Below are positions 1 through 16,935 of a DNA stretch of 32,000 bases, piece by piece. Source of the stretch: Paenibacillus sp. PCH8 (lineage in GTDB: Bacteria; Bacillota; Bacilli; Paenibacillales; Paenibacillaceae). The translations under genes were made by a program, and so were the position numbers. The notes under the pieces are model-generated. The model worked only from the letters and a program-made list of their open reading frames with translations. It did not search any database and was not told the DNA's origin. Each line of letters opens with the position of its first letter. Positions within the stretch are counted from its first letter, which is position 1. The stretch spans positions 8,357 to 40,356 of the forward strand of contig NZ_PKQK01000008.1 of NCBI RefSeq assembly GCF_002968835.1, in the 5' to 3' direction.

Positions 1-2
1 GT

Positions 3-494
3 GCAGACCTCTCGACAATTATTATCGACAACACCAATCCATATCAAACCATCAATTCCGTAAGCCGGGTGCTAATTGAAGATAGCCGCGGAAACGGGAA
101 AGGTTATCAATACAGTATGGATGTAACTGATTTCATTTCAGAACCAATGCAAGATAACTCAACAAACTCACAAAGCCTTGTGGTGAGTATTCCGGCCAAT
201 GCGCTGTCGGTCGAGGTACTAAATACCAAAACCTTAAACGGACCGGCAGCAGAGTTGTCTAACCTTGGAAAACATGTCTTCTCAGGTAGTGGACCAGAAA
301 TGCTGGCCACAGCAAGACAGTTTGAAGGCATGGGATACAACGAAATTCCGCTTAACTTCATGCTAGGTGTTCCAGATCGTGTGAAAATTGTCTCATCCGG
401 ATCTGGAAGCAAGTTCGTTCCAGGACAGTCTACGGGTCTGATGGCGGGGATTTATAAAGCGAAGGTTGTTAGTACATTAACATCAGGTATTTAG
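3..494 (+). CDS. 3' end of a larger ORF cut by the window edge; product unknown
   Basis: Frame 3 is open from base 3 (ADLSTIIIDNTNPYQ...) into the listed 69..494 ORF. A GC-rich hairpin follows. Confidence 0.45.
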   Translation, partial: ADLSTIIIDNTNPYQTINSVSRVLIEDSRGNGKGYQYSMDVTDFISEPMQDNSTNSQSLVVSIPANALSVEVLNTKTLNGPAAELSNLGKHVFSGSGPEMLATARQFEGMGYNEIPLNFMLGVPDRVKIVSSGSGSKFVPGQSTGLMAGIYKAKVVSTLTSGI

Positions 495-504
495 GAACTT
501 TGAG

Positions 505-530
505 GGGGCTTCGCTTTTATGAAGCCCCTT
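505..530 (+). terminator. Hairpin terminator candidate
   Basis: GGGGCTTC (505-512) pairs with GAAGCCCC (521-528) directly after the stop at 494. The T-run is weak. Confidence 0.5.
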
Positions 531-713
531 CCAATTGTTTCATATTGAGGGCAAGTGTAAAGGATATTTACAGTAATGAAGAAAATTGAGATGCTTCTCT
601 TCCTACAACCTATCCACCATCCCCACTACCAAATCGATTTCAAATAATCATATGAATATCCATAAAATAGTGTTAGTATATTAGTATATTAATTAATAAG
701 AAATGGAAAGCGA

Positions 714-1061
714 GTGATTCATTTGCTTAATACATATGAGCAATTGGAAAAATCAATCAGGGCCACAAGCAACGGTATTATTGAGAAATACCAGGATAAC
801 ATGATAGACACGTTTCAATGCATGGAACAATTACATACTTGCTGTACGATGGTCGGGACGCTCATTGATAATGAAAGGAAAAGCGGTTCAGATAAAGAGT
901 TGATTATCCGCTTAATTAAACTCCGTGATGATATATCTCAACCAGTCATGCAGATGGTATACGATCAAATTCAATCACTGAATACAAAGAAAAATAAAGT
1001 TAAAAAAGAAATATATAAATTAGAAGTTAGAAAGAATTTATTAAGTGCTGCAGCTGGCTAA
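714..1061 (+). CDS. Hypothetical helical or coiled-coil protein
   Basis: 115-codon ORF with a GTG start and a weak SD, followed by a terminator. No recognisable motif. Confidence 0.4.
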   Translation: MIHLLNTYEQLEKSIRATSNGIIEKYQDNMIDTFQCMEQLHTCCTMVGTLIDNERKSGSDKELIIRLIKLRDDISQPVMQMVYDQIQSLNTKKNKVKKEIYKLEVRKNLLSAAAG

Positions 1062-1099
1062 TCATCAGTACATAATTAAATAGCTTAGATTAGAAAAGG

Positions 1100-1130
1100 A
1101 GGTTGCTTTATAATTTAGCAACTTCTTTTT
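1100..1130 (+). terminator. Rho-independent terminator
   Basis: AGGTTGCT (1100-1107) pairs with AGCAACTT (1117-1124) with one G-U pair, then CTTTTT. Confidence 0.55.
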
Positions 1131-1392
1131 GAATCTGGAAAATAGCTTTGAGCAGAGCTATTAGATAATTTAATGATTAATTAAATAGAGGAGAGTTTTG
1201 AATGGTAGAAGGTATTCTGTTACCTCTTGCATGGTAGGGTTAATTATTGGCGTTGCTATAGTAGCATCTGGATTAACGAATGGCTCAAACGGGAAAGATA
1301 AGTTTGATTGGTCAGCAACCATCAAGCCTGTTTCTTGGGGACTCTAAATGCTTATTGTGTCAATCTATTGGATAGTTAGTAGGGGATAATAC

Positions 1393-1422
1393 TTAGCACT
1401 TTTATTGTAATTGTGTTATAAT
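1393..1422 (+). promoter_or_regulatory. Sigma-A-type promoter candidate for the Ubl/E2/E1 operon
   Basis: TTAGCA (1393-1398), 18-nt spacer, and an extended -10 TGtTATAAT with TATAAT at 1417-1422. Confidence 0.4.
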
Positions 1423-1513
1423 CAGATCATTATGATTTGAGATTAATTTTCTTTGCCTTTTTTAAAAGACAAAGAGTGGTTCCCGGTGAAAACCGGTTTA
1501 AATTTTGGCAATG

Positions 1514-1577
1514 AAGCCGTGGAGAACAATAGCATGCCTATTTAGGTGTGCTTTTTTTGTTTTCTGCGGCTTTTTTT
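1514..1577 (+). promoter_or_regulatory. Nested hairpins with two T-runs in the operon leader (attenuator or terminator-like)
   Basis: Inner hairpin AGCATGCC...GGTGTGCT (1531-1552) is followed by T7. Outer stem AAGCCG (1514-1519) pairs with CGGCTT (1567-1572) and is followed by T7. The structure lies 20-80 nt upstream of the ATG at 1600. Confidence 0.4.
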
Positions 1578-1599
1578 GCTTCTACTGGAGGATAAATAA

Positions 1600-1932
1600 A
1601 TGACATTTGTAAACTTGTCAAAGTTTAAAGAAAACTTAACTACTCAACAACCGCATAGTTCATACTCCAATGGACTGTTCAAAGTAATTGATGCGGCTAT
1701 GTGCAATGTTGAGAGTAATGAGGTTGATTGGAATTCATTCTCTCTACAGGAGGCTCAGCAAGCTCTTAACGAGGCCTTAGCTTATGTAGCAGATGAAATA
1801 GCTGATGAATATTCAGTACGTCCCAATGAAGGGAATGCTATTCATGTGTACCTACATAACAATGAGTCAATGTACCGGTTAAGAAGAATGAAACCAGTAA
1901 ACCAAGAGACGGAAGATAACGAGTTTTTCTAA
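1600..1932 (+). CDS. Hypothetical protein, first gene of the operon
   Basis: GGAGG SD 9 nt upstream of the ATG; 110 aa; acidic C-terminus; no recognised motif. Confidence 0.55.
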   Translation: MTFVNLSKFKENLTTQQPHSSYSNGLFKVIDAAMCNVESNEVDWNSFSLQEAQQALNEALAYVADEIADEYSVRPNEGNAIHVYLHNNESMYRLRRMKPVNQETEDNEFF

Positions 1933-1964
1933 AGATTTCAAATTAGAGAAAGTTAGGTGAGGGT

Positions 1965-2687
1965 ATGAACCGGGCTTATTTTTGTGATGAACAAGTAGGT
2001 CAGATGCAAGCAACGTATGATGCAATCACAATGGTCAAGATGTTACATGAAGCTGGGATAGATGTCCGTAACAATCCGATTAATTATTATTGTTACGGAT
2101 GGGGTGATCAGGCGGATATCTTCCATGAGGCGATCAAAAGAATGTTGTTTGAAAGCTGCAACCAATCCTACTCGGACAATCTCCAAGGAGAGACTTGGGA
2201 GTATAGCATCGTATTTCCGGAAATTGAAGAAATGATGCTTCTATCCAATAATGACGAGGCAAATGAACTGTTAAAAAAGGTAGATATTCTTTTGCATTAT
2301 GAATGTCCAAATTTTGAAATGGGGATGAGCGGAGTTATAAAGGGAAAGAACATCTACATCAAGATAACAGGAAACTATGGGATATATTCGAATTTCTTAG
2401 GCAGAATTATTGAACTGAGAACTATCGTACTTGGGTTCATTGCACATAAGAAGAAGATGCTCATGCAAAAAATCCAAAATATTTTCATGATAAAAATGTT
2501 GTCTCTTAGTCGGCCAATACCATTAGGTATCTCAATTTGGGCACCTAATTCATTCGTATTCATACAACTTATGAAAACGTGTGGGGTAGATTTCTCCACC
2601 GAGATTGCAGAAAATCTCAGTCTAAAGAAGATGTGTTCTTTGTTAAGGGACGTTATAAAAATTGATGAAAAGGATGAGGTAGCATGA
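1965..2687 (+). CDS. Hypothetical protein, second gene of the operon
   Basis: AGGTGAGGG SD. Its stop overlaps the next start (ATGA at 2684-2687), which suggests translational coupling. It is the only open frame across this stretch. Confidence 0.55.
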   Translation: MNRAYFCDEQVGQMQATYDAITMVKMLHEAGIDVRNNPINYYCYGWGDQADIFHEAIKRMLFESCNQSYSDNLQGETWEYSIVFPEIEEMMLLSNNDEANELLKKVDILLHYECPNFEMGMSGVIKGKNIYIKITGNYGIYSNFLGRIIELRTIVLGFIAHKKKMLMQKIQNIFMIKMLSLSRPIPLGISIWAPNSFVFIQLMKTCGVDFSTEIAENLSLKKMCSLLRDVIKIDEKDEVA

Positions 2688-3415
2688 GTTTAATTCTAAC
2701 GGATAATAAAGCGGGTACTGTTGAGCATTCGCTAAGTATTAGTGAAGAAGGTAATGAATATGTAATCAGGTTGCGAGATCATAGCCTACCCTTGGTAGCT
2801 GAATTTCAGAACGGTATTAAGGTAGGAGAAGGTTTTTATACGAATGAGGATTTAGCTGAAGCATTATTACATGCTCAAAACCTCAGTGTCTTTAAAACAC
2901 CTATCCTGCCACGGGGTTGTATTTCATACCTGGAGAGTACATTTAAAACCTATTGTTTCTTCGAAGTTCCATCACATCGCAGAACTGTGTTTTACCATGA
3001 TGCGGTTATCGATGATGTGCCTTTTCCAAATTTAATTTTTGGTTATGAACTTAGGTCAAGAACAGATAGGTTTGAAATATGTAAGGTATTTGTGGGTGCT
3101 TTAGAGAAGGGCTTAACCAATGAAGAGTCGGAAGTATATTTTTATCCCTATACAAACGTAGATAGAACCTATGAAGTATGTTTAGGGTCATCTCAGTTAC
3201 CCCAAATCACACGCATTTCTCAATTATCGACAGTGCCAGAGGTTTTTTTCAATTCACAGAACTCTGACTGTTACTATGGTCATGCAAATGGTAGTGGGCT
3301 TACCTATAGGGAACTATTAGAGAAAGTCAAAGGCAAAGAATTCCTGGATAATTATCTGAAAACGACTGGCCTGACCCTCGCTGATTGGATAAGTGGACTG
3401 ACTTCTCTATCTTAG
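2684..3415 (+). CDS. E2/UBC-like protein (PRTRC protein B-like)
   Basis: YPYTNVDRTYEVCLGSS resembles the E2 catalytic signature (HPN-like Asn, then Cys about 8 residues later, followed by L/G). The Cys166 codon is at 3179-3181. VPFPNLIFGY and RRTVFYHD resemble segments I recall from PRTRC-B-type prokaryotic E2s. The gene sits immediately upstream of the JAB and E1 genes. Confidence 0.65.
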   Translation: MSLILTDNKAGTVEHSLSISEEGNEYVIRLRDHSLPLVAEFQNGIKVGEGFYTNEDLAEALLHAQNLSVFKTPILPRGCISYLESTFKTYCFFEVPSHRRTVFYHDAVIDDVPFPNLIFGYELRSRTDRFEICKVFVGALEKGLTNEESEVYFYPYTNVDRTYEVCLGSSQLPQITRISQLSTVPEVFFNSQNSDCYYGHANGSGLTYRELLEKVKGKEFLDNYLKTTGLTLADWISGLTSLS

Positions 3416-3462
3416 GCCAAATACAACTCAAATAAATTAGAAATAAGCTGGAGGTAATAGAT

Positions 3463-4758
3463 ATGTCTAACGAATTATTTGGTGGTTCTGATCTCTTTTC
3501 ATACTTTGGGGGAGGTTTCGTAGAGCCAACGAAAGTTGATAAGGAAGAAACACTAAAATCAGTGGGTAATACGATCGACATCACTAAACGCATTCAATCC
3601 AGAAGTAAATCCGACAAATCAATTGATGGACCTGGTGTAGACACATGTGAGGGCTCAACTCAGGATGAAATTAATGCTCTATCGGATGAAACACCTATAA
3701 GTGAGTCATCAGCCGATACTGCAGAACTAGGAGTAAAAAAAGATTCGTCCAAAAATGCAGATAGCAAAGATAAAAAGCCCGTCTTTACTAACACAACATA
3801 TATTTGCTACGCCGGTACGTCCAAGCTTTTAACTAAATATTTTGATATTGAAAAGATAGGGCTACTCAGTTTAGAGGATGTTCGCAAACAGTTAGAAAAA
3901 GACTTTCCTGAGATGTCAAAACAAAGAACGTTCATGAGTTTTGACGAGAAGAAGAATATAATAGTACCGGCCATCACAGGTGGGAAGAAGGGGGCTTTGC
4001 CCGTTTACTTCAACGATTCGAGAGCATACTTCTACTCTGCGAGCCAGCTCGTCGAGCATAAAGATAAGTATTCAATCTGTTACCTGGCTGCCAAAAACGG
4101 TTACTATGAGATCCGTGAGAATGGGATCGGGGTTTTTATCTCCAAATGCAACAAGGAAGAGTTAGAAGGATGGAGCAATGCTGATGAATTTTTTGCACAG
4201 CAGCCCAGGGCCCAAGAACTTGATTCTTGTCGCACCGGCTTTAAATCCAAGTTGCCGAAAATCCCTGAATCATTGGTACACCAACTAATATCATTTTTTA
4301 TGGACTATTCTGATAATGATGTAGAAGTGATGGGTGTATTCTACTGGGATACCAAGCAAGGTGTTTATCTATTGGATGTTCCTAATCAAAGTGTGTCGAA
4401 GACTTCAATCGATCAGCATTATACGAGTATGCCATATTGGATTATTAAAGTTTGTGAGATACATTCTCATAATAAAATGGAAGCATATTTCAGTTCTGTA
4501 GATAACGAAGATGAACTAGGCACCCATCTATATGGTGTAATAGGAAACTTAAAACATGCAAAAGGACTCATTCGGTTTGATATTCAAACACGAGCTGGTA
4601 TGGCAGGGAAATTTATTTCCTTGCTTCCTTCAGCACTTCTAGAGGGAGACTATGATAATCAAGAAGATTCATGGAACCTCATTAAAAAAGTGCAGTACCC
4701 TGCAGCCTGGCATGATCGTGTCTTGCTTGATCAGGTGGAGGTGGTTAACCATGATTAA
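3463..4758 (+). CDS. Fusion protein: disordered N-terminus, ubiquitin-like beta-grasp ending in an internal Gly-Gly, linker domain, then JAB/JAMM metalloprotease (PRTRC C + A-like)
   Basis: Complete JAMM motif EIHSHNKMEAYFSSVD (HxHx7Sx2D, nt 4462-4503) with an upstream Glu in DVEVMG. Residues about 106-174 (TYICYAG...LSLEDVRKQLEKDFPEM...NIIVPAITGG) have Ubl/ThiS-like length and pattern and end in GG (nt 3979-3984). GGAGGT SD. Confidence 0.75.
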   Translation: MSNELFGGSDLFSYFGGGFVEPTKVDKEETLKSVGNTIDITKRIQSRSKSDKSIDGPGVDTCEGSTQDEINALSDETPISESSADTAELGVKKDSSKNADSKDKKPVFTNTTYICYAGTSKLLTKYFDIEKIGLLSLEDVRKQLEKDFPEMSKQRTFMSFDEKKNIIVPAITGGKKGALPVYFNDSRAYFYSASQLVEHKDKYSICYLAAKNGYYEIRENGIGVFISKCNKEELEGWSNADEFFAQQPRAQELDSCRTGFKSKLPKIPESLVHQLISFFMDYSDNDVEVMGVFYWDTKQGVYLLDVPNQSVSKTSIDQHYTSMPYWIIKVCEIHSHNKMEAYFSSVDNEDELGTHLYGVIGNLKHAKGLIRFDIQTRAGMAGKFISLLPSALLEGDYDNQEDSWNLIKKVQYPAAWHDRVLLDQVEVVNHD

Positions 4759-5611
4759 TCTACTTGATTATCACGCTAAGAATGATGATTCAGAGGTTCG
4801 CCAATCACGGATACAGAGTATGTACTACTACATTGTAATTATTGGGGCCGGCGGTACCGGTGGCTATGCAGTTCAACGAATTACCAAAATGTTAAGTGCA
4901 TTTGCATCCGTAGATTCATTTCTTATGATTGCTGATCCGGATATGGTAGAGGAAAAGAATTTGCTACGACAGCCTTTCGTTAACCAGGATATAGGCGGAA
5001 AAAAGGCAAGTGTTCTTACCCAACGCTATGGTAGAACATACGGACTGAAAATCGGTTCTTATGTTGATAAATATGTGGAATCGGTTGAACAACTAGATCA
5101 GTTATTTTCATTAACTGATTTTCGTCACAAGACCGGGCAACACATTCAGAAGGTGTTAATCGGGGCAGTTGATAATGACTTTACGCGAAATGTAATGCAT
5201 GAGTACTTTATGCAGACTGATGACCTGATTTATATTGACGCAGGTATCGAAGGGGTCTTTTTACCATCAGGTGATAAACCAAAGAGTGAGTGGGGAGAAG
5301 AAGAAATAACAGATCATATGGAAAGCGGATATTCCGGGCAAGTGGTAGTGGGTCTGAGGAAAAATGGAACAGAAATCCTTGAACCACTTAATAGAATTTA
5401 CCCGATCGATGCAACGGATCTTATTGCGCCTTCACATAATTGTGGTCTGGAACCTTATCAACCTCAACGTATGATCGCAAATGAGATGGCAGCATTCCAT
5501 ATCTCAACGATTTTAAATGAGCTGTTGAGTACAAATACAATCATCGTACACTATGCAAACTTCAATGCTAGGACTGGCAGTTGCCGGCCACAGTACGTGC
5601 AAGAAGTATAG
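4751..5611 (+). CDS. ThiF/MoeB/E1-like adenylyltransferase
   Basis: Rossmann motif IIGAGGTGG and the DPDMVEEKNLLRQ motif (D.D.V...NL.RQ) typical of E1/ThiF. GGAGGTG SD 8 nt before the ATG at 4751. The start overlaps the upstream stop region. Confidence 0.85.
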   Translation: MINLLDYHAKNDDSEVRQSRIQSMYYYIVIIGAGGTGGYAVQRITKMLSAFASVDSFLMIADPDMVEEKNLLRQPFVNQDIGGKKASVLTQRYGRTYGLKIGSYVDKYVESVEQLDQLFSLTDFRHKTGQHIQKVLIGAVDNDFTRNVMHEYFMQTDDLIYIDAGIEGVFLPSGDKPKSEWGEEEITDHMESGYSGQVVVGLRKNGTEILEPLNRIYPIDATDLIAPSHNCGLEPYQPQRMIANEMAAFHISTILNELLSTNTIIVHYANFNARTGSCRPQYVQEV

Positions 5612-5617
5612 AACAGA

Positions 5618-5656
5618 AACCCCTGAATTTCTCATTTTGAGAGATCAGGGGTTTTT
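5618..5656 (+). terminator. Rho-independent terminator of the operon
   Basis: AAACCCCTGA (5618-5626 region) pairs with TCAGGGGTTT (5645-5654), followed by TTTTT. Confidence 0.8.
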
Positions 5657-5695
5657 GTGAACAATAAAAAATGATGGAAATAATATAAAAATTTA

Positions 5696-5860
5696 TTATT
5701 TCTTCATGCGGTTCTTTTGTTTGGGGTTCGCTTTTTTCTTGTTGTCAGACTTTTCTGACCATTTGGATACAATAGATCTAATTAACTCTTGTGCCACCGC
5801 TTCTAAACAATGATCTCCAAATTGGTTCAGCAATTCCTTTAGGATCTCGCACCAGTCCAT
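5696..5860 (-). CDS. Small hypothetical protein (54 aa) with a basic C-terminus
   Basis: AAAGGAG SD 8 nt upstream of the ATG at 5860 (MDWCEILKELL...). I shortened the listed 80-aa ORF to this start. Confidence 0.4.
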   Translation of the reverse strand: MDWCEILKELLNQFGDHCLEAVAQELIRSIVSKWSEKSDNKKKANPKQKNRMKK

Positions 5861-6007
5861 ATGTAACACTCCTTTCATATAAATGAAATTTTTCAGTATT
5901 TCTGAACAGCAGGTGTAATTGCCCAAACCGTAATTCAAATGATTGCTGTACGACCGGAAGATAGATTTCTAGTAACAAGTCAGTTTGAGAATGCCAATTC
6001 ACCCATG

Positions 6008-6180
6008 TACATAGTTCATCTCCGTAGTTAGTTGACCGAATGAGAATCAACACTGAATATTGATATAGACAGTTTTTAGTACTAAAAAAAAATCTTCAGA
6101 ACAAGTCCCTTCGAGAAATGCAAACTCATGCATTTACATAGTTCATCTCAATAGTTAGTTGACCGAATTGAAATGAACAC
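6008..6180. repeat. Two 46-nt imperfect direct repeats (6008-6053 and 6135-6180), 127-bp period
   Basis: TACATAGTTCATCTC..TAGTTAGTTGACCGAAT.....AACAC, 40/46 identical. On the minus strand both copies read as a gene start (MLILIRSTNYGDEL versus VFISIRSTNY*). Confidence 0.7.
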
Positions 6181-6815
6181 CAGCATTTTTGGTGGTCGAC
6201 CTCCTCAGGAAGTTCCTCCATGTCACTCCTTCAGCGATTTGCAAAGCAATGTAAATTGCGTAAATGTGTTTCAGGGTCTTGCCTTCCAAATCAAAAATGG
6301 TTAAATTCGCGGTTTCAAAGCTCAAATATCGATATTAGAAAACATTTGTGACCAAACAACAAAAAAAGACCACTTCTAAATTGAAGTAGCCTTTCTCTAT
6401 TATTCTGTTTTCTCCAACAGGGTTTTTCTGTTGATTCGAAGTATTGGATAACAAAACGTTGTATAATTAGGATTGTGATTCTGAGAACATCGGACTAGGA
6501 GAAATCGTTGGCCAACTGAATTTTGGACTGTTAGATTAACATTGAATTAGTTAATTTTTTTTGTCGATAAGAGATTAAGTGTGCATGAGCTATGTGATCT
6601 GTAGCTTACCGATTTGACCATTAGTGACGGCAATAGCGTATATTCGAGGAAAGGCGACAAAGATAGGAGCTTCCGATGAGTTTCGAACTCCGAATTGCTC
6701 TTCAGGCGTACCAGGACATCCGGGACGATGATCTATAGGACACCGAGTTTTGAGGATCTGGAGGGTGAGGTAGAGTCAATCAGCTGGACTTAAAAAATTG
6801 AAGGAGGAAATATAG

Positions 6816-7199
6816 ATGATATTTGAAGTGAACGTTGACAATGAGCAATGGAACGGAGAGGTGAAAAGTTCCAAGAATTATGGAAGTCATTATGAGCTCC
6901 GACTGAGCGCAAGAGGATCGGGAATTACTGTGTTCTTCGGACATGCTTCTTATGGCCAATGGTTTGTTGCAGTTCCAGATTGGGAGGCTTCGGTGGTTGT
7001 TGGTAACCTACAAGATACGTACTATACAGCAGAAAAACTTGGCCGAGCAATGGAAAGTGAAATAGATGGTTGGTCTGTTGCTGCGGCAATAACTGCATAT
7101 GCTAATCAAGAAGGAATTAATGAAGTAGACGGACAGCAAGAAGTTTTGGATGAATTGGAAGCTGCAGGGTACGTTATTGTTGATCCAGAAGAAAAATAG
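6816..7199 (+). CDS. Hypothetical protein
   Basis: Strong GAAGGAGGAAA SD; 127 aa; no recognised motif. Confidence 0.6.
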   Translation: MIFEVNVDNEQWNGEVKSSKNYGSHYELRLSARGSGITVFFGHASYGQWFVAVPDWEASVVVGNLQDTYYTAEKLGRAMESEIDGWSVAAAITAYANQEGINEVDGQQEVLDELEAAGYVIVDPEEK

Positions 7200-7213
7200 A
7201 ATAGGTAGGATTG

Positions 7214-7254
7214 TACTCCACAGGTGTTGGTAAACTTCATGAATCTGTGGAGTA
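7214..7254 (+). other. Perfect 10-bp stem hairpin
   Basis: TACTCCACAG (7214-7223) pairs with CTGTGGAGTA (7245-7254) around a 21-nt loop. There is no T-run. Confidence 0.3.
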
Positions 7255-7295
7255 GATCAGCTTGACTTAAATGTTTTATGAATCTGGAGGATATT

Positions 7296-8024
7296 ATGAG
7301 CGAGATTTATTTTAACTATGATAGGTACTTTGAAGAAATTCTGGTTCGCCTTACTCATTATGATAGACTTGTAGATTTTGTTACAGATGAAGATGCCATA
7401 AGAGCAAATATTGAAAAAAACAAATGGTTGATGTTTTTCACAGGAAATGTAGAGCAAGAGATAAATAATCGAAAAAATGAATACACAAACACTTTAATTC
7501 TTTTTGGAAATCAAATGGTTGTATATTATTGCACGCTTATTGAATCTATGGTTGAGAATTTCTTCTTCACTATCTTTGCAAGTAAACCAGAAAGATTAAA
7601 CGAATTCTTTTCTTCCAAAGGCGAATTGAAAGATAATTTAGGTTTCTCTTTAAAGAAATTTTTGGAATCAGAATCCAAAGACGCATACGTTAATGATCTT
7701 TCAATAAAGGGAGCTAATCTATGTTTAGAAGGAGGTCCAAATAAATTTATTAAAAGAATTAAAGAACTAACAGGTTTCCAGATCTCGCAGGAAGTAAAGG
7801 AGATTCTGGATGACTTATATTATAAGCGTAACAGAATTATTCATAATAACGAGAAATTTGAAATTAGTACTGAAGACTTATATAAATATAGAGATGTGTT
7901 ATTTGAAATACTAGGTAAATTCCACGAGCAACTCACAAAATTAGGAGCTGAAATAAAAGATGATTATATAAAACCCTTTAGAGTTGAAGCTGTCAATACA
8001 GTAGGCAACAGCCACGCCCATTGA
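7296..8024 (+). CDS. HEPN-domain protein (RiboL-PSP/Abi-like)
   Basis: GGAGG SD before the ATG at 7296. C-terminal YYKRNRIIHNNE contains the HEPN Rx4H motif (RNRIIH, nt 7827-7844). AT-rich gene. Confidence 0.55.
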   Translation: MSEIYFNYDRYFEEILVRLTHYDRLVDFVTDEDAIRANIEKNKWLMFFTGNVEQEINNRKNEYTNTLILFGNQMVVYYCTLIESMVENFFFTIFASKPERLNEFFSSKGELKDNLGFSLKKFLESESKDAYVNDLSIKGANLCLEGGPNKFIKRIKELTGFQISQEVKEILDDLYYKRNRIIHNNEKFEISTEDLYKYRDVLFEILGKFHEQLTKLGAEIKDDYIKPFRVEAVNTVGNSHAH

Positions 8025-8076
8025 AGATTTTAAATATAATACGCCAGATGCGTCTATGGTTGAGGGGGAAGTAAGA

Positions 8077-8583
8077 ATGTTTTATGAAAATAGTATTAAA
8101 ATTTCATCTCAGGATGATATCACTCAGGAATCATTGATCAATAATGAGTATTACGTATTTAGTACTAGTATTAATTGTCTTGATAAAAAATCAAGCATTC
8201 AAAGTAGAGATAATAATATATACATTGTGGCAGTGGCTTACAGTAATGATAAAGGAGAAAAATATATTAATTGGTTTATTGCAAGAGAATCGAATATTAC
8301 TGTAATTGATGATGATGATGAGTATACAGAAAAAAAGGAAGTTGAACTAGATCTTTTAGGGATAGAAAATTTGAAAATTAGTGAACCAACAAAACCCAGA
8401 CATCAAATCAAGTTTTGTAAGGGGGTTACGGATACCATTAATGATAGTTATAGACATAGTCGTGGTTTTGGAATAATTGAAATACTAAGAGAAACACACC
8501 CTTATAATTTTACTTTTTATATTCCAGAACATATCAAAGATGCAAGTTACATCCACTTTAAGCAAAATAAGCGGATTATATAA
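8077..8583 (+). CDS. Hypothetical protein
   Basis: GAGGGGGAAG SD before the ATG at 8077; 168 aa; poly-Asp patch; no recognised motif. Confidence 0.5.
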   Translation: MFYENSIKISSQDDITQESLINNEYYVFSTSINCLDKKSSIQSRDNNIYIVAVAYSNDKGEKYINWFIARESNITVIDDDDEYTEKKEVELDLLGIENLKISEPTKPRHQIKFCKGVTDTINDSYRHSRGFGIIEILRETHPYNFTFYIPEHIKDASYIHFKQNKRII

Positions 8584-8636
8584 TCGCATTAACTAATAGG
8601 CTGATATCAAAATCATCTGAATTTGGAGCAAAAATT

Positions 8637-9647
8637 ATGAATAGTGAAGTGGTTAAACCAATTGATAGAAAGATGAGAAAGAGAATTTTTTTAAGTACTA
8701 TTGTTATCTTGGTTGTCGTGCTGGTAATTCCGTCATTGATTAAAATAGAATTGAGGACATATGAACTCCCTGGCAAACTTGACTCAGCACAAGAATTATT
8801 TCGCAACAAAACTCAAAGCTTTATTTATATTCCTGGTGTGTATGAGCAAAGAGTAAGTCGATTGTCCGATTATCTTATACTTAAAATTAGATATAGGGGT
8901 TTACTTCAAGAGTTTGAACAACCAAAACAACAACAGGAAACGCCCTATGTTTCCCCAGAAGATCCTCCAGGAAGGTTGGAATATGTTGATACAGAAGAAC
9001 TCAGAGATAGTCAACTTTTTGTTGCTATACCGGCATACATAGCAGGAAGTAATGAAGCGGACCGTCCAATTCAATACGGATTTGAGTTTGAAATTACAGG
9101 TATTCCATCAGAAGAAACTGAAGATTTATTAAACTCGACTATAGTAACAATAGATGGTTCCTCTCCTACACTTGAAAGAGTGGAGCAAATATTGGCTTCT
9201 AAAGCGCTTCACCGAATTGAAGGAAGATCCTATGATGGGAAAACTATTTTTTTAGATACTTCGCTTTACAATACTACAGTTTCTGCACACTACACAATAA
9301 AAGAATTATGGAAATTTAGTGACTTAATGAGATTTGACTTGGCCAATATTGAAGGTAATTCAGGTGGTGCCGCCACAGCCTATCAAGTCATGCTTAAACA
9401 ACAGGGAAGACCAAATGAACATGGGGAATTTGTTATTACTGGAGCTATTGAAGTTGAGGGTGATATTACAAGTGTTGGGGGAGTAAAAGCTAAAACATAT
9501 CTGGCCATTAAGAATTCAATTCCGGTCATGTTTGTCCCTAAGGGTATAAATTATACAGAAGCCATAGAAATGAAAAGTCTGATGAAGAGTAATATTGATA
9601 TCGTCCCAATTCAGAAGCTTGGTGATATTGAGGCATATTGGAAGTAA
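8637..9647 (+). CDS. Membrane-anchored Lon-type (S16) serine protease domain protein
   Basis: N-terminal TM helix IFLSTIVILVVVLVIPSLI. The C-terminus has GNSGGAATAY (Ser codon 9360-9362) and ITGAIEVEGDITSVGGVKAKTYLA...VMFVPKGN (Lys codon 9486-9488). These match the Lon proteolytic-domain pattern. Confidence 0.75.
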   Translation: MNSEVVKPIDRKMRKRIFLSTIVILVVVLVIPSLIKIELRTYELPGKLDSAQELFRNKTQSFIYIPGVYEQRVSRLSDYLILKIRYRGLLQEFEQPKQQQETPYVSPEDPPGRLEYVDTEELRDSQLFVAIPAYIAGSNEADRPIQYGFEFEITGIPSEETEDLLNSTIVTIDGSSPTLERVEQILASKALHRIEGRSYDGKTIFLDTSLYNTTVSAHYTIKELWKFSDLMRFDLANIEGNSGGAATAYQVMLKQQGRPNEHGEFVITGAIEVEGDITSVGGVKAKTYLAIKNSIPVMFVPKGINYTEAIEMKSLMKSNIDIVPIQKLGDIEAYWK

Positions 9648-10237
9648 CTAGGGTGTATGTGACTCCAGAGATTGATCTGAAAGTTTATTGATTACACATT
9701 GAGCACCCTAAGCTTGCAGGTGTAAGATGTTCATGGTGAACAAGTGTTAATGTATGCCGTAGTAACATTTATATCATGCTGTGTAGGGCGATACTTGCAA
9801 AGGCACGCACTAAGCCTGCAGCAGTTGCTTCTGCAGACTAATGGGCTACCTGCGGTGTTAAGTTTCGTAAATCCTACAATATTAAAACGCAGTACTTATC
9901 TTTTCCTAATCGATCAGGATCTTCAGGAGGAGATAGTCCTTCCAATGACCGCAAGGGTATTATTGTTTCTTACCCTGGAGCGAATGTCCTTCAAAAAGAC
10001 CGAGAAGAGCCAATTATGGTACAGCAACATCAAAACGATAATCTCGCTGCTGCGTTGCGAAGTCAGTCGCACTATCCGTATCCATCCTCCGCTCATGAAG
10101 ATTTGAATCAGCATTGTGAAAATGCATCAATAATCTATAAAGATAGATATAACACCTGGGCAATTAGGTATTTATTCCTTCGATCTATTTGCCTATATAA
10201 TTTGACGAAATAAGTAGTATATGGTACAAATATATTA

Positions 10238-10380
10238 TTACGAAACACTTTGATTTACTTTGTCGTTATTGCTCGACAGAGTTGGAGACATACTGATCGG
10301 GAACATCCATGTATCAGTATATTTAAATAGGGCTATTTTCGCCATGGAGACTATAGACACCCAAAATAGGTGTCTTTTTG
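10238..10380 (+). ncRNA. Candidate small RNA or leader of about 140 nt
   Basis: Promoter TTGACG (10202-10207), 17-nt spacer, TGgTACAAA (-10 at 10225-10230). Terminator AGACACC (10355-10361) pairs with GGTGTCT (10369-10375), then TTTT. Internal hairpin ATACTGAT/ATCAGTAT. Confidence 0.25.
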
Positions 10381-10567
10381 TGTTTCCATTTTTTTTATAC
10401 CTAAAATGTAGAAATTTTATTTTTGAGCAACTTATATCTTGAGTTAACTTAGTATTTAATAGTGGGATATTTATAAAAGAAGCGAGGATTTCAATTTACT
10501 TCGATTCTTTCAATAAGTTGCCCATCTTGGTAGCTGTACTTTGATGAAATTTAAGGGGGATCAACAC

Positions 10568-11002
10568 ATGAAAGATGTTTTAGAACTGTTGGTTATGTTT
10601 GAAGAGGAAAAAGCTGAGAAAAACGTAACCGCGTACGTACCATCGCTACGTCTCGGAGTACATGGAGATACATTGGAGGAAGCTCGAACGAATGCGATTG
10701 AACTAATTGAGTTGGAACTGGAGGGGCGGCAGGAGCGGTTACCAGAGGATACAGCAGTCATTGAGACAATAAAGGGAAGTACAGGTGTGGATTTACTTGT
10801 TCTGTTTGAAGTGCTTGAAGAAGAAAATGATGTGACAGCTTACATTCCTGCATTGAGACTTGGTGTTAAAGGAACGACACTGTCTGAAGCACGCTCTAAC
10901 GCTGAAGACTTGATCAGGCTGGAATCTAAAAATCGCGTACATCCATATTCTCAAGAAACAGTAACGATCGATACTTTAAAGATAAAGGTTAAAGTTTCAT
11001 AA
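10568..11002 (+). CDS. Protein with two tandem HicB-like (UPF0150-type) domains
   Basis: AAGGGGGA SD before the ATG at 10568. It has two copies of the ...VTAY(V/I)P(S/A)LRLGV.G.TL.EAR.NA..LI.LE pattern, typical of the HicB antitoxin N-domain. Confidence 0.6.
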   Translation: MKDVLELLVMFEEEKAEKNVTAYVPSLRLGVHGDTLEEARTNAIELIELELEGRQERLPEDTAVIETIKGSTGVDLLVLFEVLEEENDVTAYIPALRLGVKGTTLSEARSNAEDLIRLESKNRVHPYSQETVTIDTLKIKVKVS

Positions 11003-11050
11003 ATACTAAAGTCACGCCAAAAGGGTTGAATTAACAAGGAGGAAATCAGT

Positions 11051-11272
11051 GTGGAAAGTAAATTTGATTTTTTTAAAGATGATGAGAGCGGTAAATGGCA
11101 GCTACCTTTGAATATCTGTAGTTTAGGTGGTTGTTATTATAACTTCCTTGAATTTGATACCAAGGATGAAGCAAGAGAAAAGGCTATAGAACTAACTAAA
11201 CATGGAAAGGAAATATCGGGTAATTATCCTTGCCAGGAGTGTCACACCCAATACTTACTCGATTGTGAGTGA
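11051..11272 (+). CDS. Hypothetical small protein
   Basis: AAGGAGGAAA SD, GTG start, 73 aa. Confidence 0.5.
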   Translation: MESKFDFFKDDESGKWQLPLNICSLGGCYYNFLEFDTKDEAREKAIELTKHGKEISGNYPCQECHTQYLLDCE

Positions 11273-11367
11273 CCTAATAAATTATCACGATACTTTGACA
11301 GGAGAATCCGATCATGCTATTATTTCTTCAATTGAATATCCATCTTAAACGATGGTTTTATAAGCGG

Positions 11368-11414
11368 AAGCACCGCTTCATGCCCTTTAGGGTCTGAAGT
11401 GGTGCTTTTTTTTT
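11368..11414 (+). terminator. Rho-independent terminator
   Basis: AAGCACCGCTTC (11368-11379) pairs with GAAGTGGTGCTT (11396-11407) in a 12-bp stem with one G-U, then T9. Confidence 0.8.
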
Positions 11415-11439
11415 ATTTTATTGATAAGGAGTGGACAGT

Positions 11440-11934
11440 ATGATGAAAAAATTTACAGGCAGCAACGCTGAGGTAAACCTTGAATTGAATGGATACATTA
11501 ATGAGTTTAAAGGCTTGATTTTAGAACAAGCAGAAGCAAAAGGGATGAAATGTTTTCTATGTAAGGACTGTTTAGCAATCGATGTGAAAATTGAAACTCT
11601 ATTCACCGGTGACGCCATCCATTATGTTTTAATGTACACGCATGCGGAAACAGATAAAAGTGCCCTATTGATATGGAAAGACTTTCTCGATCTAAAAGAG
11701 ATTGTGATGAATACCTATGAGTTGATTGAATCATTTATCTCGAAGGAGCTTAGAACCCGTACCGGATCCCTAACAGTGTTCACGATGAGATTAATGTATG
11801 ATATGTTAAATTTCATAAGAGGGATTCGAGAAGACAAAGATGGAGCGGAGGGACTCCCTTATAAAGTAATTTATGATCCGTTTATTCAACTTAAAAGCGA
11901 TAGATGGATACAGTCTATAATAGAAGAAAGATAG
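11440..11934 (+). CDS. Hypothetical protein
   Basis: AAGGAG SD about 9 nt before the ATG at 11440; 164 aa. Confidence 0.55.
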   Translation: MMKKFTGSNAEVNLELNGYINEFKGLILEQAEAKGMKCFLCKDCLAIDVKIETLFTGDAIHYVLMYTHAETDKSALLIWKDFLDLKEIVMNTYELIESFISKELRTRTGSLTVFTMRLMYDMLNFIRGIREDKDGAEGLPYKVIYDPFIQLKSDRWIQSIIEER

Positions 11935-12113
11935 AACGGTGTAACTTTGATCAGGAAGGCACATTGTGCCCTCCTGACATCCCATCAAACTACTAATATA
12001 GGTGTGGTAGATTGGAACGTGGTAATGGCTTGTTCTACTTCTTTACTCGTCATTCCTGCACTGTACAGTGTTTGTTCGATAATATGTAGATCATTATTGC
12101 ATAATTCTTGGAT

Positions 12114-12902: not shown

Positions 12903-13985
12903 AGACGGATTGTAATATGAAGTGCGACACCCACTGGAAATAAATAAAAAATGGCCCATGGCCGGATTCGTGTAGAATGAAGTCACCACAACAACCATTC
13001 ACACAAGGAGAATCCACCATGAGCTACACACATCTTAGCATAATCGAACGCAGCAAGCTAGAAATCCTCCACCAGCAAGGCAAAAGTTCACGAGCGATTG
13101 CCAAGGAGCTGGGCCGTCATCATTCGACCATCTGTCGTGAATTGGAACGCATGGTTTCATCGCAATCTTATCAGGCAGAGCATGCCCAGAGTGCTTATCG
13201 GGAACGACGTAAGGCTTCGGTCTCTCGTGGTAAATGGTCAGAAGCCTTAGGGGCTTCTTTTGCGGAAAAACTAGAGGCAACGTGGTCTCCAGAACAAATC
13301 ACAGAACGTTTCCGCGCCGAAGATCTACCTGCGGTTTCCTTTAAAACGATTTATCGCTGGATCTATGCAGGACGTCTTGTTCAAGGTAAATTACAAGTTT
13401 TACGTCACAAAGGGAAGCGTCGGAAACCCGCAGAAACTCGTGGTAAATTCACCATAGGCAGAACCATTTCAGATCGTCCAAAAGAGGTTCGTTCTCGTGA
13501 AACGTTTGGACACTGGGAATTGGATACCGTTGTATCGGGCCGCGGGAGAAGTAAAGGATGCGTAGCCACACTCATTGAACGCAAAACGCGTCTGTTTACC
13601 GCTGTTCTCATGACTGATCGTACCGCATTGTCCATGGAGATTGCGCTTGGTGTAGCCATATCACAGTACCCCAAAGGGACATTTCTCACGGCCACCGCTG
13701 ACCGTGGAAAAGAGTTTGCTTGCTACGCCAATCTGGAAATAACCCATGGCCTGCATGTTTATTTTGCTGACCCGTATTCATCCTGGCAACGCGGTTCCAA
13801 TGAGAATGGGAATGGATTACTTCGAGAGTTCCACCCCAAGGGCACCGATTTCGCTCAAGTAGAGGATGATGCTCTCGCCCACTGCCTTGATTTAATCAAT
13901 CACAGGCCAAGAAAATGCTTAGGTTGGAAAACTGCTCACGAATCTTTCATAGAGGAACTGTCGCACTTCGCTTTACAATCCGTCT
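12903..13985 (+). mobile_element. IS30-family insertion sequence (1083 bp)
   Basis: 27-bp terminal inverted repeats match 24/27: IRL AGACGGATTGTAATATGAAGTGCGACA (12903-12929) versus the reverse complement of 13959-13985. The element encodes a DDE transposase and is visibly more GC-rich than its flanks. Confidence 0.9.
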
Positions 13986-14119
13986 CAATAAAGCGGATAA
14001 TTGTTGTTACTGAAATTTGTGATCTTGCTAATAGGCTTAGGTTCTTTTTTGAAATTAATGAAGAGCACAGTGATCAAAGAAAAACATTATTTAGAAATTT
14101 AGCTATCACTAAAGATTAA
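13019..14119 (+). CDS. IS30-family DDE transposase
   Basis: AAGGAGAA SD before the ATG at 13019. N-terminal HTH (SSRAIAKELGRHHSTICRE), HWELDTV, TADRGKEF and YSSWQRGSNENGNGLLRE match IS30-family signatures. The ORF has no stop inside the IS and continues about 44 codons into flanking DNA. Confidence 0.9.
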   Translation: MSYTHLSIIERSKLEILHQQGKSSRAIAKELGRHHSTICRELERMVSSQSYQAEHAQSAYRERRKASVSRGKWSEALGASFAEKLEATWSPEQITERFRAEDLPAVSFKTIYRWIYAGRLVQGKLQVLRHKGKRRKPAETRGKFTIGRTISDRPKEVRSRETFGHWELDTVVSGRGRSKGCVATLIERKTRLFTAVLMTDRTALSMEIALGVAISQYPKGTFLTATADRGKEFACYANLEITHGLHVYFADPYSSWQRGSNENGNGLLREFHPKGTDFAQVEDDALAHCLDLINHRPRKCLGWKTAHESFIEELSHFALQSVSIKRIIVVTEICDLANRLRFFFEINEEHSDQRKTLFRNLAITKD

Positions 14120-15999: not shown

Positions 16000-16935
16000 A
16001 TGAATATGATTAATATTTACGAAGTGTCACAGCAAGTTCTAGCAGAAAGGCATTATGAGGCTGTTGTCGAAGAATTAATGAAGAAAGACTCTAAAAGCCC
16101 TGCGACTCTAGAAAAATGGTTCAAAGCATTCAATGTTAACTATACTTTGAAGCATATCATCACGGCGAGACCAGAAGATCTGAGGATAATGATGAGTAAG
16201 TGCAAATCAGACAAGTATCCCGAATGTATTCTGGAACTTTACGATATGTATGTGAAGAAGTTCTCAAAATCGGATCGATACATCGGTGACCGTAAACAAA
16301 AGTATAATGCAGTACAACTTATGAAGAGCCTAGAGATTAAGGTATGTCCTCTTTGTAACCGGAATTATATTAACAATGTAAAATCGAAGGGGCGGTTGGA
16401 AAAGCGTACAGGGCAGCTTGATCATTTTCATAATAAGTCATCTTACCCATTTCTTTCAATGTCATTCTTCAACTTAGTACCTGCCTGCTATGGGTGCAAT
16501 CATACGAAGGCTAGGTTTGAGCTTGAACAGACGCCCTACGCCGAGGTTGATTTGGATCCGCTCATTCGGTTTAGCGTGTCATTTAACAAAATTGAAGATA
16601 TATTTGATGAGCAACACTTAAGGGTTTCTCTAGACAATCATCCGTCCATTCAGCAGAATGTTGATGTTTTGGGTCTTTTAGAAACGTACACAGAGGAACA
16701 TAATGAAGATGCCTTTGCAGTTGTGAAGGCTTTCAAAAATTATAACGACGTTTGGCAGAATTCGATGATTGGAAATATAAAAGGACTGTTTAAAGATAAG
16801 GATCACTTGTCTGATATGTTATTAAGCGAATATATTGGTCTGAAGGATAGACTAAAGTCTAAGCCATTAGCGAAATTAAAAAAGGATATTTATGAGCAAC
16901 TGGAAGCGTACCAGCAGAGTAGTATATCAAGATAG
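16000..16935 (+). CDS. ptuB: Septu-like PtuB (HNH nuclease)
   Basis: CPLCNRNY...QLDHFHNKSSYPF...NLVPACYGCNHTK matches an HNH/TIGR02646-like pattern. The start is adjacent to the ptuA stop (TGAATG). Confidence 0.75.
   Translation: MNMINIYEVSQQVLAERHYEAVVEELMKKDSKSPATLEKWFKAFNVNYTLKHIITARPEDLRIMMSKCKSDKYPECILELYDMYVKKFSKSDRYIGDRKQKYNAVQLMKSLEIKVCPLCNRNYINNVKSKGRLEKRTGQLDHFHNKSSYPFLSMSFFNLVPACYGCNHTKARFELEQTPYAEVDLDPLIRFSVSFNKIEDIFDEQHLRVSLDNHPSIQQNVDVLGLLETYTEEHNEDAFAVVKAFKNYNDVWQNSMIGNIKGLFKDKDHLSDMLLSEYIGLKDRLKSKPLAKLKKDIYEQLEAYQQSSISR

Follow-up and report, generated by a model that had tools for sequence, protein, structure and literature searches.

The 32,000-nt window analysed here, taken from contig NZ_PKQK01000008.1 of Paenibacillus sp. 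PCH8, carries near its 5' end an operon of five genes, the last three of which encode proteins resembling the E2, deubiquitinase (DUB) and E1 components of a ubiquitin-like protein (Ubl) conjugation system. A preliminary description of this DNA had proposed five co-oriented genes lying between a structured leader and a terminator, and this layout was recovered when the open reading frames (ORFs) were called again: genes A (1600-1932, 110 aa), B (1965-2687, 240 aa), C (2684-3415, 243 aa), D (3463-4758, 431 aa) and E (4751-5611, 286 aa, with a longer ORF opening at 4652) all occupy the forward strand, with a promoter and a structured leader on their 5' side and a terminator on their 3' side. The two gene overlaps that had been reported are genuine, comprising an ATGA at 2684-2687 that translationally couples gene C to gene B and an 8-nt overlap at 4751-4758 between genes D and E, and all five starts are preceded by purine-rich Shine-Dalgarno sequences (listed as GGAGG, AGGTGAGG, GGATGAGG, GGAGG and GGTGGAGGTGG). 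A consensus scan identified a sigma-A-type promoter-like site with an extended -10 element at 1393-1422 on the forward strand (TTAGCA-18-TGTTATAAT; 10 of 12 consensus matches plus the TG, with the core spelled TTAGCA-18-TATAAT). At the other end, the operon is closed on the same strand by a terminator-like hairpin followed by a T-run (about 5617-5656; AAACCCCTGA...TCAGGGGTTTTTG), which was read by eye because its long loop caused the automated scan to miss it.

Gene C encodes the E2-like protein. Its product matches the Pfam family Prok-E2_D (PF14460) with an E-value of 7e-9 and 36 bits, exceeding the gathering score of 25, and its best NCBIfam match is PRTRC_B (TIGR03737; E 2.9e-9, 36.6 bits against a cut-off of 131.45). 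The motif YTNVDRTYEVCLG, spanning residues 156-168, contains Asn159 and the candidate catalytic Cys166. We aligned 11 distant homologues, drawn from Paenibacillaceae, B. subtilis, a B. cereus plasmid, a jumbo phage, an Anaerolineae metagenome-assembled genome (MAG) and a Deinococcus protein annotated as PRTRC_B, and found the Pro, Asn and Cys of YPYTN-x6-C to be invariant; as judged from the alignment, this Pro...Asn...Cys arrangement is the E2 HPN...C signature minus its histidine. PADLOC returned no match for gene C, and the only PDB sequences matched by phmmer were those of the eukaryotic ribosomal protein eS7. The eS7 similarity is confined to residues 94-152 (2963-3139; phmmer E 7e-5, Pfam Ribosomal_S7e E 0.006) and probably reflects chance or a common β-meander.

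The product of gene E matches Pfam ThiF (E 1e-8; its 35 bits exceed the gathering score of 28.1), and its best NCBIfam match is PRTRC_ThiF (TIGR03736; E 1.2e-18, 67.3 bits against a cut-off of 144.75). It contains a GAGGTGG motif (GxGGxGG) at residues 32-38 and DPDMVEEKNLLRQ at residues 62-74, and its nucleotide-binding and Mg/ATP residues (among them D62/D64, N70, R73/Q74 and D141) are conserved in 123 homologues, 99% of which also present Cys231. In profile comparisons Uba1 ranked first with its active adenylation domain (1.4e-8), ahead of Uba6, MccB, NAE, UBA5 and ThiF, while a phmmer search of solved structures yielded no related entry at E <= 0.01. With PADLOC, gene E gave weak matches to Cap2-type E1-E2 models alone.

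Gene D encodes the most elaborate of the five proteins, which we divided on the basis of a 41-sequence alignment and an AlphaFold2 model with a mean predicted local distance difference test (pLDDT) score of 79.9. The protein begins with a DLFSYFGG motif at residues ~8-17 (feature 3463-3540; motif 3484-3513), modelled as a short helix at residues 11-15, in which F12 and F15 never vary and L11 and Y14 hardly do; the homologue from the B. cereus plasmid starts MTDLFGFFD, and we take the DLF of the motif to resemble the last residues of bacterial β-clamp-binding peptides. An acidic linker of variable length follows (residues ~27-102; 3541-3768), which is gap-rich and poorly conserved in the alignment and predicted to be disordered (pLDDT <50). 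Residues 103-177 (3769-3993) form a putative Ubl-like ββαββ domain that is compact over residues 103-173, ends in GGKKG177 and reaches a pLDDT of 86 when modelled in isolation. Beyond a low-confidence hinge at residues 174-178 lies a confidently modelled α+β domain of mixed strands and helices, JAB-N (residues about 178-268, modelled at ~180-262; 3994-4266), which is homologous to the N-terminal part of protein gp215 of jumbo phage vB_BceM_WH1. The remainder of the protein is a JAB/JAMM metallopeptidase domain (fold at residues 269-425; 4267-4758), and all these segments lie on the forward strand.

Several lines of evidence identify the peptidase domain. The JAMM motif HSHNKMEAYFSSVD (HSHx7SxxD) at residues 334-347 provides His334, His336, Ser344 and Asp347, with Glu288 upstream, and all these motif residues are invariant or nearly so in the alignment, in which R218 and W295 are also at least 90% conserved. 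In Foldseek searches of the PDB with the gene D model, the leading matches were AMSH/Sst2, BilC (8tyx_B, from a bacterial Ubl-DUB complex) and archaeal and eukaryotic Rpn11, with probability 1.00 and E-values of 3e-5 to 1e-3, and BubCD figured among the weaker ones. At the sequence level, gene D matches Prok-JAB under the gathering score (E 0.0019), and its best NCBIfam match is PRTRC_A (TIGR03735; E 2.5e-8, 33.7 bits against a cut-off of 101.8), limited to residues 261-371. Some homologues are labelled "PRTRC genetic system protein A" by JGI, and PADLOC had no match for gene D. Taken together, the E2 motif, the DUB-type JAB match and the adenylation motifs with Cys231 uphold the original reading of an E2 / Ubl-JAB / E1 cassette, and the E2, JAMM and E1 motifs all fall at the residues first given for them.

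The C-terminal end of the Ubl-like domain required a correction. The Gly-Gly at residues 173-174 had been taken as the Ubl terminus, but the domain has a conserved G-x-K-G ending instead; K176 and G177 do not vary in the 41 sequences, and G177 is the predicted site of cleavage and activation. This assignment draws on relatives in which the domain occurs in other arrangements. A B. subtilis contig of ~206 kb encodes a stand-alone homologue of 128 aa ending in VVSGAKKG, whose stop codon aligns exactly with G177, and an Anaerolineae MAG encodes a stand-alone Ubl homologue of 88 aa ending in QPGRKG. On B. cereus plasmid pPER272 the Ubl unit is fused to the JAB domain, as in the window. In phage vB_BceM_WH1, gp211 consists of five near-identical 57-aa units arranged head to tail, each ending in AGTKG followed by Ala, and lies three genes upstream of E2-like gp214, a JAB-N-JAB protein without Ubl (gp215) and ThiF-like gp216; the Ubl family alignment matches one gp211 unit with an hhalign E-value of 2.5e-5. 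The depositors annotated gp211 (778-1677 of the phage stretch inspected; LC597490.1) as a "virion structural protein". The relatives thus indicate that residues 103-177 form a separable, C-terminally activated unit, and the coexistence of a poly-unit precursor, a protease fusion and stand-alone forms ending at the same glycine reproduces the pattern of ubiquitin genes, which implies JAB-mediated release of the Ubl at G177.

In Paenibacillus sp. 1A_MP2, a close relative, a 1-nt deletion at about position 9238 of the locus (equivalent to ~3988 in the window) follows the GGK codons of the Ubl end and changes GGGAAGAAGGGGG to GGGAAG-AGGGGG. The deletion leaves gene D as two ORFs, one with the Ubl and the other with the JAB domain, and could be a sequencing error, the mark of a pseudogene or a naturally occurring separation of Ubl and JAB peptidase.

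Genes A and B yielded no Pfam, NCBIfam or PDB match, including in searches of the PDB with profiles, and neither matched PRTRC_C, PRTRC_D, PRTRC_E or PRTRC_F in NCBIfam at E <= 1, nor any PADLOC model. Gene A orthologues are syntenic in all Paenibacillaceae loci and share an acidic-aromatic C-terminal tail (...EDNEFF in the window, 1903-1932) in which E-x-x-F-[FI] is kept. A proposed homology between gene A and the 109-aa proteins encoded in Bacillus loci was unsupported (hhalign probability 0.9%). Gene B, likewise syntenic across loci, belongs to a tiny family, with 24 cluster representatives among 1.84 billion proteins, and evolves fast: identities in the family alignment range from 21 to 51% with zero invariant residues, D19 and K25 are conserved in at least 90% of members, and a C-terminal tail of the form E-[DE]-[VA]-A(A) is kept across orthologues (window 2658-2687). 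Judging from their sequences, the tails of A and B and the N-terminal motif of D may be docking peptides, and the strict synteny of the two genes is consistent with the earlier suggestion that their products may be coupled adaptors or targets of the system.

The composition of the cassette matches operon type 6d of Iyer, Burroughs & Aravind (2006, Genome Biol 7:R60; PMC1779556), which comprises a small β-grasp protein whose C-terminal glycine is conserved, a JAB peptidase that carries an α+β JAB-N domain, a rhodanese-free E1, an E2-like protein in which the Cys is kept and the HPN histidine is missing, and a rapidly diverging accessory protein. Set against this list, gene C is E2-like with a conserved Cys and without the classical histidine; gene D carries a JAB peptidase preceded by an α+β JAB-N domain; gene E is a ThiF domain only, of 286 aa and without rhodanese, adjoining the JAB gene; and G177 is invariant and marks the end of the stand-alone Ubl forms, the ββαββ model (pLDDT 86) having no significant β-grasp match. 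Gene B may be the counterpart of the rapidly diverging accessory protein. Like the type 6d operons, which were reported from β-proteobacteria, Bacteroides, Anabaena, B. cereus and B. thuringiensis and often reside on mobile elements (PMC1779556), the present cassette is borne by mobile elements, and its E2 has the sequence YPYTN. It departs from them in that the Ubl is fused ahead of JAB-N-JAB within a 431-aa pro-protein with an N-terminal motif and an acidic linker, in having two accessory genes, in that the "absolutely conserved" histidine after the E2 cysteine is not invariant in the 11-sequence alignment, and in that gene B is without invariant charged residues.

PRTRC (TIGR03734-03742) is the TIGRFAM name for the proteobacterial branch of type 6d, and "PRTRC-like", the term chosen in the preliminary description, proved to be the right level of claim. 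The best NCBIfam matches of genes C, D and E are to three PRTRC models, with scores of 34-67 bits that amount to 25-45% of the curated cut-offs of 102-145; the profile searches that had been called for thus gave matches above the gathering scores for Prok-E2_D and ThiF, whereas those to Prok-JAB and the PRTRC models fell below their cut-offs. In sequence terms, the cassette is a distant Bacillota relative of PRTRC, with which it shares a residence on plasmids and integrative and conjugative elements (ICEs), and not a TIGRFAM-grade member. Among the 35 window ORFs scanned, none gave a ParB-type Pfam domain, and the NCBIfam model TIGR03734 gave no match among genes A-E, on which it was run. A Deinococcus locus annotated as PRTRC was considered as a canonical reference and dropped, being broken up by insertion sequence (IS) elements.

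The cassette was also found to be distinct, as first proposed, from CBASS Cap2/Cap3 and from Bil, PADLOC giving no match for genes C and D and only weak Cap2-type E1-E2 matches for gene E. With CBASS Cap2/Cap3 and Bub (6E/DUF6527) it shares an E1/E2/peptidase logic of bacterial origin, but it has neither an E1-E2 fusion nor a DUF6527 serine protease; E1 and E2 are separate genes, and the scan of window ORFs revealed no CD-NTase domain. The E1 and E2 proteins here keep conserved cysteines, unlike Bub, which works through Tyr and Ser oxyesters (PMC11601596). The likeness to Bil (BilABCD) is closer, since both systems combine the same four activities (Ubl, E2, a Ubl-pre-processing JAB deubiquitinase and E1) and BilC is a top match of the JAB domain. 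The Bil E1 is a two-domain protein. In contrast, the E1 here is single-domain and ThiF-like, the E2 belongs to a different family, the Ubl is one small four-stranded domain ending in G-x-K-G, the PADLOC models for Bil and ISG15-like systems gave no match, and the context is a plasmid or phage backbone rather than a defence island. In the later literature, type 6b has become type II CBASS, 6E has become Bub and Bil is known as an ISG15-like family, and 2024 preprints describe other bacterial Ubl families as still uncharacterised.

The distribution of the cassette points to mobile elements as its carriers. Neighbourhoods were gathered from plasmid tblastn matches and contig look-ups, a scan of genome contigs with the E1 having given 4 loci. 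The five genes occur in the same order in Paenibacillus sp. 1A_MP2 (94% DNA identity), Cohnella soli, P. ihuae and P. gansuensis, and on plasmids of Thermobacillus composti (pTHECO01), P. peoriae, P. rhizovicinus and P. sonchi. A failure of the five genes to co-occur in related genomes had been named at the outset as grounds for abandoning the reading; because they are syntenic in seven further Paenibacillaceae loci, the reading holds. The other ground named, a lack of significant matches of genes C and E to the UBC and E1 folds, did not apply either. E1 relatives were found by tblastn on 248 plasmid records, 152 of them from Bacillus (E1 ~40% identical), and others, ~27% identical, in jumbo phages, while megablast of window positions 1-12000 against plasmids and phages gave no match. 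The view that cassettes of this type are mostly proteobacterial does not agree with these counts, nor with the listing of B. cereus and B. thuringiensis among type 6d carriers as early as 2006 (PMC1779556).

Comparison with Paenibacillus sp. 1A_MP2 separates the cassette from what follows it in the window. The two sequences are 94% identical from position 3 up to 5656, exactly where the terminator ends, and homology resumes at 10129. The intervening slot of ~4.5 kb (5657-10128) holds in the window genes for a DUF6618 protein, a HEPN protein (RiboL-PSP), a 175-aa protein without assignment and a Lon_C-like protein, while in 1A_MP2 the equivalent slot holds a protein kinase and other genes instead. 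Since the slot is replaced in a 94%-identical relative, the defence-type neighbours in the window are swappable cargo and not conserved partners. Further downstream, a gene pair (14137-16935) encoding an AAA_21/AAA_15 ATPase of 620 aa and a 311-aa protein had been called Septu, and is better described as the PADLOC candidate system PDC-M62A/B (1.6e-131 and 4.7e-44, compared with ~1e-18 and ~1e-7 for PtuA/PtuB). An IS30-like transposase gene lies just upstream of this pair (12977-14119).

On the plasmids, the genes neighbouring the cassette are of another kind. Upstream lie genes for a DinG-type helicase, a YdjM-like hydrolase, an SNF2 helicase and a helix-turn-helix protein, and downstream a gene of the phosphoadenosine phosphosulfate (PAPS) reductase family and HicB genes. 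On pPER272 the cassette forms part of one gene array with Rad52 and DnaN, and all seven close Paenibacillaceae carrier plasmids encode a DnaN paralogue; as these plasmids are related, the co-carriage of DnaN may only reflect their common backbone.

The operon is preceded by a structured 5' leader RNA (1431-1602 on the forward strand; covariance model R1, 115 bits, E 5e-21), in which two small hairpins are followed by a long, nested, terminator-like hairpin with U-tracts, and whose 3' end is the start codon of gene A. A terminator scan found two terminator-like hairpins in the leader, and the last U-tract is predicted to be able to pair with the Shine-Dalgarno sequence. The structure, of ~170 nt, is kept across loci whose proteins share only 45-70% identity. 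Model R1, built from eight leaders, recovered the known copies and, in every locus, a second copy downstream of the cassette, which in the window is more degenerate (10236-10425 on the forward strand; 54 bits, E 1.6e-8) and in plasmids sits directly before an operon of the PAPS-reductase family. In the window, the second copy is followed by a gene (10541-11002) for a 153-aa protein made of two ~70-aa repeats (VTAY[VI]P[SA]LRLGV...) with a weak PHD_like antitoxin match, at a place where related plasmids carry HicB-family antitoxin genes.

Comparative analysis of 18 leader sequences supports the predicted structure. Canonical pairs filled 92.5% of the paired cells, compared with 50-58% in slid controls, and 27 of the 41 pairs showed compensatory changes, with 0 of 500 shuffles reaching the observed values, although these pair counts are somewhat inflated by the fitting of the alignment to the model. 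G:U cells greatly outnumber A:C cells (115 against 10), and no more than 77.7% of cells would be paired on the antisense strand, so that the structure is assigned to the sense strand and hence to the transcript. The same excess of G:U over A:C, together with the position of the hexamers upstream of the hairpins, led us to reject an Frpo-type single-strand DNA promoter as an explanation of the leader. No Rfam family corresponds to it, the searches giving only chance-level matches of at most 23 bits. Nearly all leader copies inspected in other loci are preceded by [TG]nTATAAT and then by a CATTAC-like sequence, which is CATTAC in most copies and ATCATTAT in the window.

The leader also connects the cassette to other plasmid genes. 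The T. composti plasmid pTHECO01, which is conjugative (it carries TcpE, type IV coupling protein and relaxase genes), has seven leader copies, all on the strand of one long unidirectional gene array and all with a -10-like element (TATAAT in six of the seven) and a CATTAC-like sequence upstream. Behind these copies lie the cassette itself, two genes of the PAPS_reduct family, dnaN, a Mom-family (XF1762) gene, a DUF6094 methyltransferase gene followed by one for a ResIII protein, and a DUF4258/YgiT pair. The same array includes genes for Ssb, a toprim protein, adenine and cytosine methylases, RadC, a thermonuclease, a RecF-like protein and, at its end, a Y-family polymerase; one of the PAPS-reductase-like proteins, of 280 aa, also matches the HUP domain of tRNA_Me_trans. 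Since the leader is common to other plasmid operons, the cassette would belong to a co-regulated set.

These observations suggest an analogy with plasmids of the pLS20 family, in which structured elements present in several copies (EGeRS1) or promoters under repressor control (EGeRS2) stand before variable operons with, among others, methylase, anti-restriction-type and thermonuclease genes (PMC8708921, PMC6294495); plasmid leading regions are, moreover, enriched in anti-defence genes (PMC11541004). Like EGeRS1 and EGeRS2, the present leader has predicted secondary structure and occurs in multiple copies directly upstream of several variable, clustered operons on a conjugative plasmid. The likeness is one of description, and there are differences: EGeRS1 elements measure 400-600 bp (PMC8708921, PMC6294495) and the leader ~180 nt, and each leader copy has its own promoter-like -10 element, while EGeRS1-B is without a constitutive promoter and EGeRS2 is controlled by repressor and operator. 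By this analogy, the gene set behind the leader resembles a pLS20-type establishment regulon, and the leader, as a candidate new cis-regulatory RNA, may define such regulons in Paenibacillaceae plasmids.

The conserved context of the cassette is thus a backbone array of DNA-metabolism and anti-restriction-type genes with the same leader, which speaks for a function in the service of the mobile element. Together with the finding that the downstream defence genes are variable cargo, this narrows the "immune or counter-immune" role first put forward towards its second half. On balance, we consider it probable that the operon is a Ubl conjugation module owned by a mobile element, in the form of a Bacillota megaplasmid or integrated-element backbone, and that it acts most likely in establishment or counter-defence, because it would be element-owned and co-regulated with DNA-modification and replication accessory genes; protection of the host from phages is less likely as its purpose.

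From the conserved residues and from homology to characterised systems we infer the following sequence of events. Transcription from the sigma-A promoter would have to pass the ~170-nt leader, whose hairpin and U-tracts are attenuator-like and may also sequester the Shine-Dalgarno sequence. Gene D would be translated as a pro-protein, which its own JAB domain, or a JAB domain acting in trans, would cut after Gly177 to release a Ubl carrying the putative DLFSYFGG docking motif at its N-terminus and the acidic tail. The E1 (gene E), presumably of the homodimer type, would adenylate Gly177 and take the Ubl onto Cys231, from which it would be handed over to Cys166 in the E2-like product of gene C and then on to lysines of one or more targets. 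The products of A and B would serve either as substrates or as specificity factors, and the JAB peptidase would also reverse the modification. Judged from its genomic context, the purpose of this cycle would be to help the element establish itself in the cell, by means of counter-defence or by control of DNA replication and repair proteins.

A bolder form of this proposal, which we put forward tentatively and consider possible rather than probable, casts the cassette as a weapon with which conjugative megaplasmids and jumbo phages establish themselves, switched on through the leader together with anti-restriction genes and tagging proteins of the new cell or of the element's own replisome. In a concrete version, the system could modify clamp-associated proteins and so constitute a bacterial counterpart, by analogy, of PCNA ubiquitination. 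This version is suggested by the resemblance of the DLF to clamp-binding peptides, by the DnaN genes of the carriers (under the leader in pTHECO01) and by the Y-family polymerase gene at the end of the array.

A number of results weigh against the interpretation of the cassette as an element-owned conjugation module. The β-grasp fold of the Ubl domain is without statistical support: the best Foldseek match in the PDB has an E-value of 0.38, and the weak leading matches (PB1 and the B1 domains of proteins L and G; E >= 0.38, template modelling (TM) scores of 0.3-0.46) belong to the β-grasp class. The best match in BFVD is an unnamed viral protein of 82 aa (TM 0.55, E 0.038). A profile of the domain gave no significant β-grasp match among PDB sequences, hhalign comparisons with ubiquitin, NEDD8, ThiS and MoaD sequences were negative, and only one of 13 Ubl family members touches PRTRC_C (E 0.047; NCBIfam searched at E <= 10). 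No E3 and no target were identified, genes A and B are without detectable relatives of characterised function, and our literature searches found no functional study, and hence no biochemical or genetic data, for PRTRC or type 6d systems. As regards context, MOB-suite types most carrier plasmids as non-mobilizable, the cassette in the window is followed by genes of defence type (HEPN, Lon-like and PDC-M62), the covariation counts carry the inflation noted above, and the establishment-regulon reading draws on analogy and on one fully inspected plasmid.

The defence-type genes and the enzymology bear on a different explanation, in which the operon is a host antiphage system similar to Bil, and attachment of its Ubl to structural proteins of an infecting phage would disrupt the assembly of virions. 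This explanation would accommodate the high rank of BilC (8tyx_B) among structural matches of the JAB domain, the HEPN, Lon-like and PDC-M62 genes that follow the operon in the window, and the annotation of the phage poly-Ubl gp211 as a virion structural protein. It fits less well with the E1, a single domain of 286 aa unlike the two-domain E1 of Bil, and with the PADLOC results, in which genes C and D have no model and gene E only weak Cap2 matches. The defence-type neighbours are, furthermore, variable and absent from the 94%-identical relative, the conserved neighbours being plasmid DNA-metabolism and anti-restriction-type genes with the same leader, and jumbo phages themselves carry complete cassettes. 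We therefore regard a Bil-like role as unlikely, if not negligibly so.

The PAPS-reductase-family genes raise another explanation, which we rate as less likely still: that the E1 makes a Ubl thiocarboxylate, as in ThiS, MoaD, TtuB and SAMP, and supplies sulfur to a PAPS-reductase-like PP-loop ATPase that thio-modifies plasmid DNA or RNA to evade restriction. An E1, a Ubl, a JAMM protein and a PP-loop ATPase make up the TtuABCD and SAMP/UbaA/NcsA thiolation systems. A PAPS_reduct gene with the same leader lies just downstream of the cassette in pTHECO01 and in the P. rhizovicinus and P. urinalis plasmids, another is close by in B. cereus pPER272, and the tRNA_Me_trans HUP match of the 280-aa pTHECO01 protein points in the same direction. 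The association is, however, inconstant, since no PAPS-reductase is annotated beside the cassette on the P. peoriae and P. sonchi plasmids or in the phage stretch inspected, and none was called in the B. subtilis locus or among the window ORFs tested. Moreover, an E2-like protein with invariant Asn and Cys throughout has no role in known sulfur relays, while a Ubl precursor of several units and a JAB of the DUB type are characteristic of conjugation systems. Rhodanese is absent from the E1, and sulfurtransferase and cysteine desulfurase are absent from the operon, as was also noted for these operon types (PMC1779556). The least probable of the explanations, to which we attach very little weight, is an addiction or selfish-maintenance module of the kind speculated upon by Iyer et al. 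2006 (PMC1779556), in which a host protein would be modified by E1/E2 and de-modified by JAB, so that cells losing the element would come to harm. Its sporadic, mobile-element-tied distribution, the joint encoding of opposed activities and the frequent HicB-type antitoxin genes nearby would suit such a module, but nothing in the operon is like a pair of stable toxin and labile antitoxin, five genes under tight leader control within a multi-operon set are unlike known addiction modules, and the close relative with gene D split by a 1-nt deletion apparently tolerates it.

The type of system to which this cassette belongs has been known computationally since 2006, has TIGRFAM and Pfam models, and includes homologues automatically annotated as PRTRC protein A. 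We found no prior description of a tailed Ubl-JAB-N-JAB pro-protein ending its Ubl in G-x-K-G, of the phage poly-Ubl, of the accessory pair A and B, or of a common leader RNA linking the cassette to a plasmid gene set. Bacterial Ubl conjugation has recently been demonstrated in antiphage defence (CBASS Cap2 and Bil) and in Bub operons, and PRTRC/6d systems, for which we found no experimental study, are common on plasmids, on ICEs and in some jumbo phages. The present locus offers a compact, testable example, with a self-contained Ubl-JAB pro-protein, a defined cleavage glycine, and single-domain E1 and E2 proteins whose catalytic cysteines are obvious, and with the stand-alone Ubl of B. subtilis and the five-unit poly-Ubl of the phage as natural comparators. 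By tying the cassette to anti-restriction-type and replication genes, the leader leads to the hypothesis that mobile elements use Ubl conjugation for their establishment, and if the cassette does act as an establishment weapon, it would be the first case in which a mobile element turns Ubl conjugation to offence or establishment, as opposed to its use by a host in defence.

Two further features were recorded in the remainder of the window. A c-di-GMP-I riboswitch (RF01051; 20421-20509 on the forward strand, 82.9 bits, E 4e-15), the sole gathering-level Rfam match in the window, lies between an ORF at 19842-20342 and a LytTR response-regulator gene at 21053-21844. Near the 3' end, a protein-kinase ORF at 30500-31704 (Pkinase 1e-26; PADLOC Stk2 7.5e-33) appears to be truncated or split into two parts, at 30500-31135 and 31108-31704.

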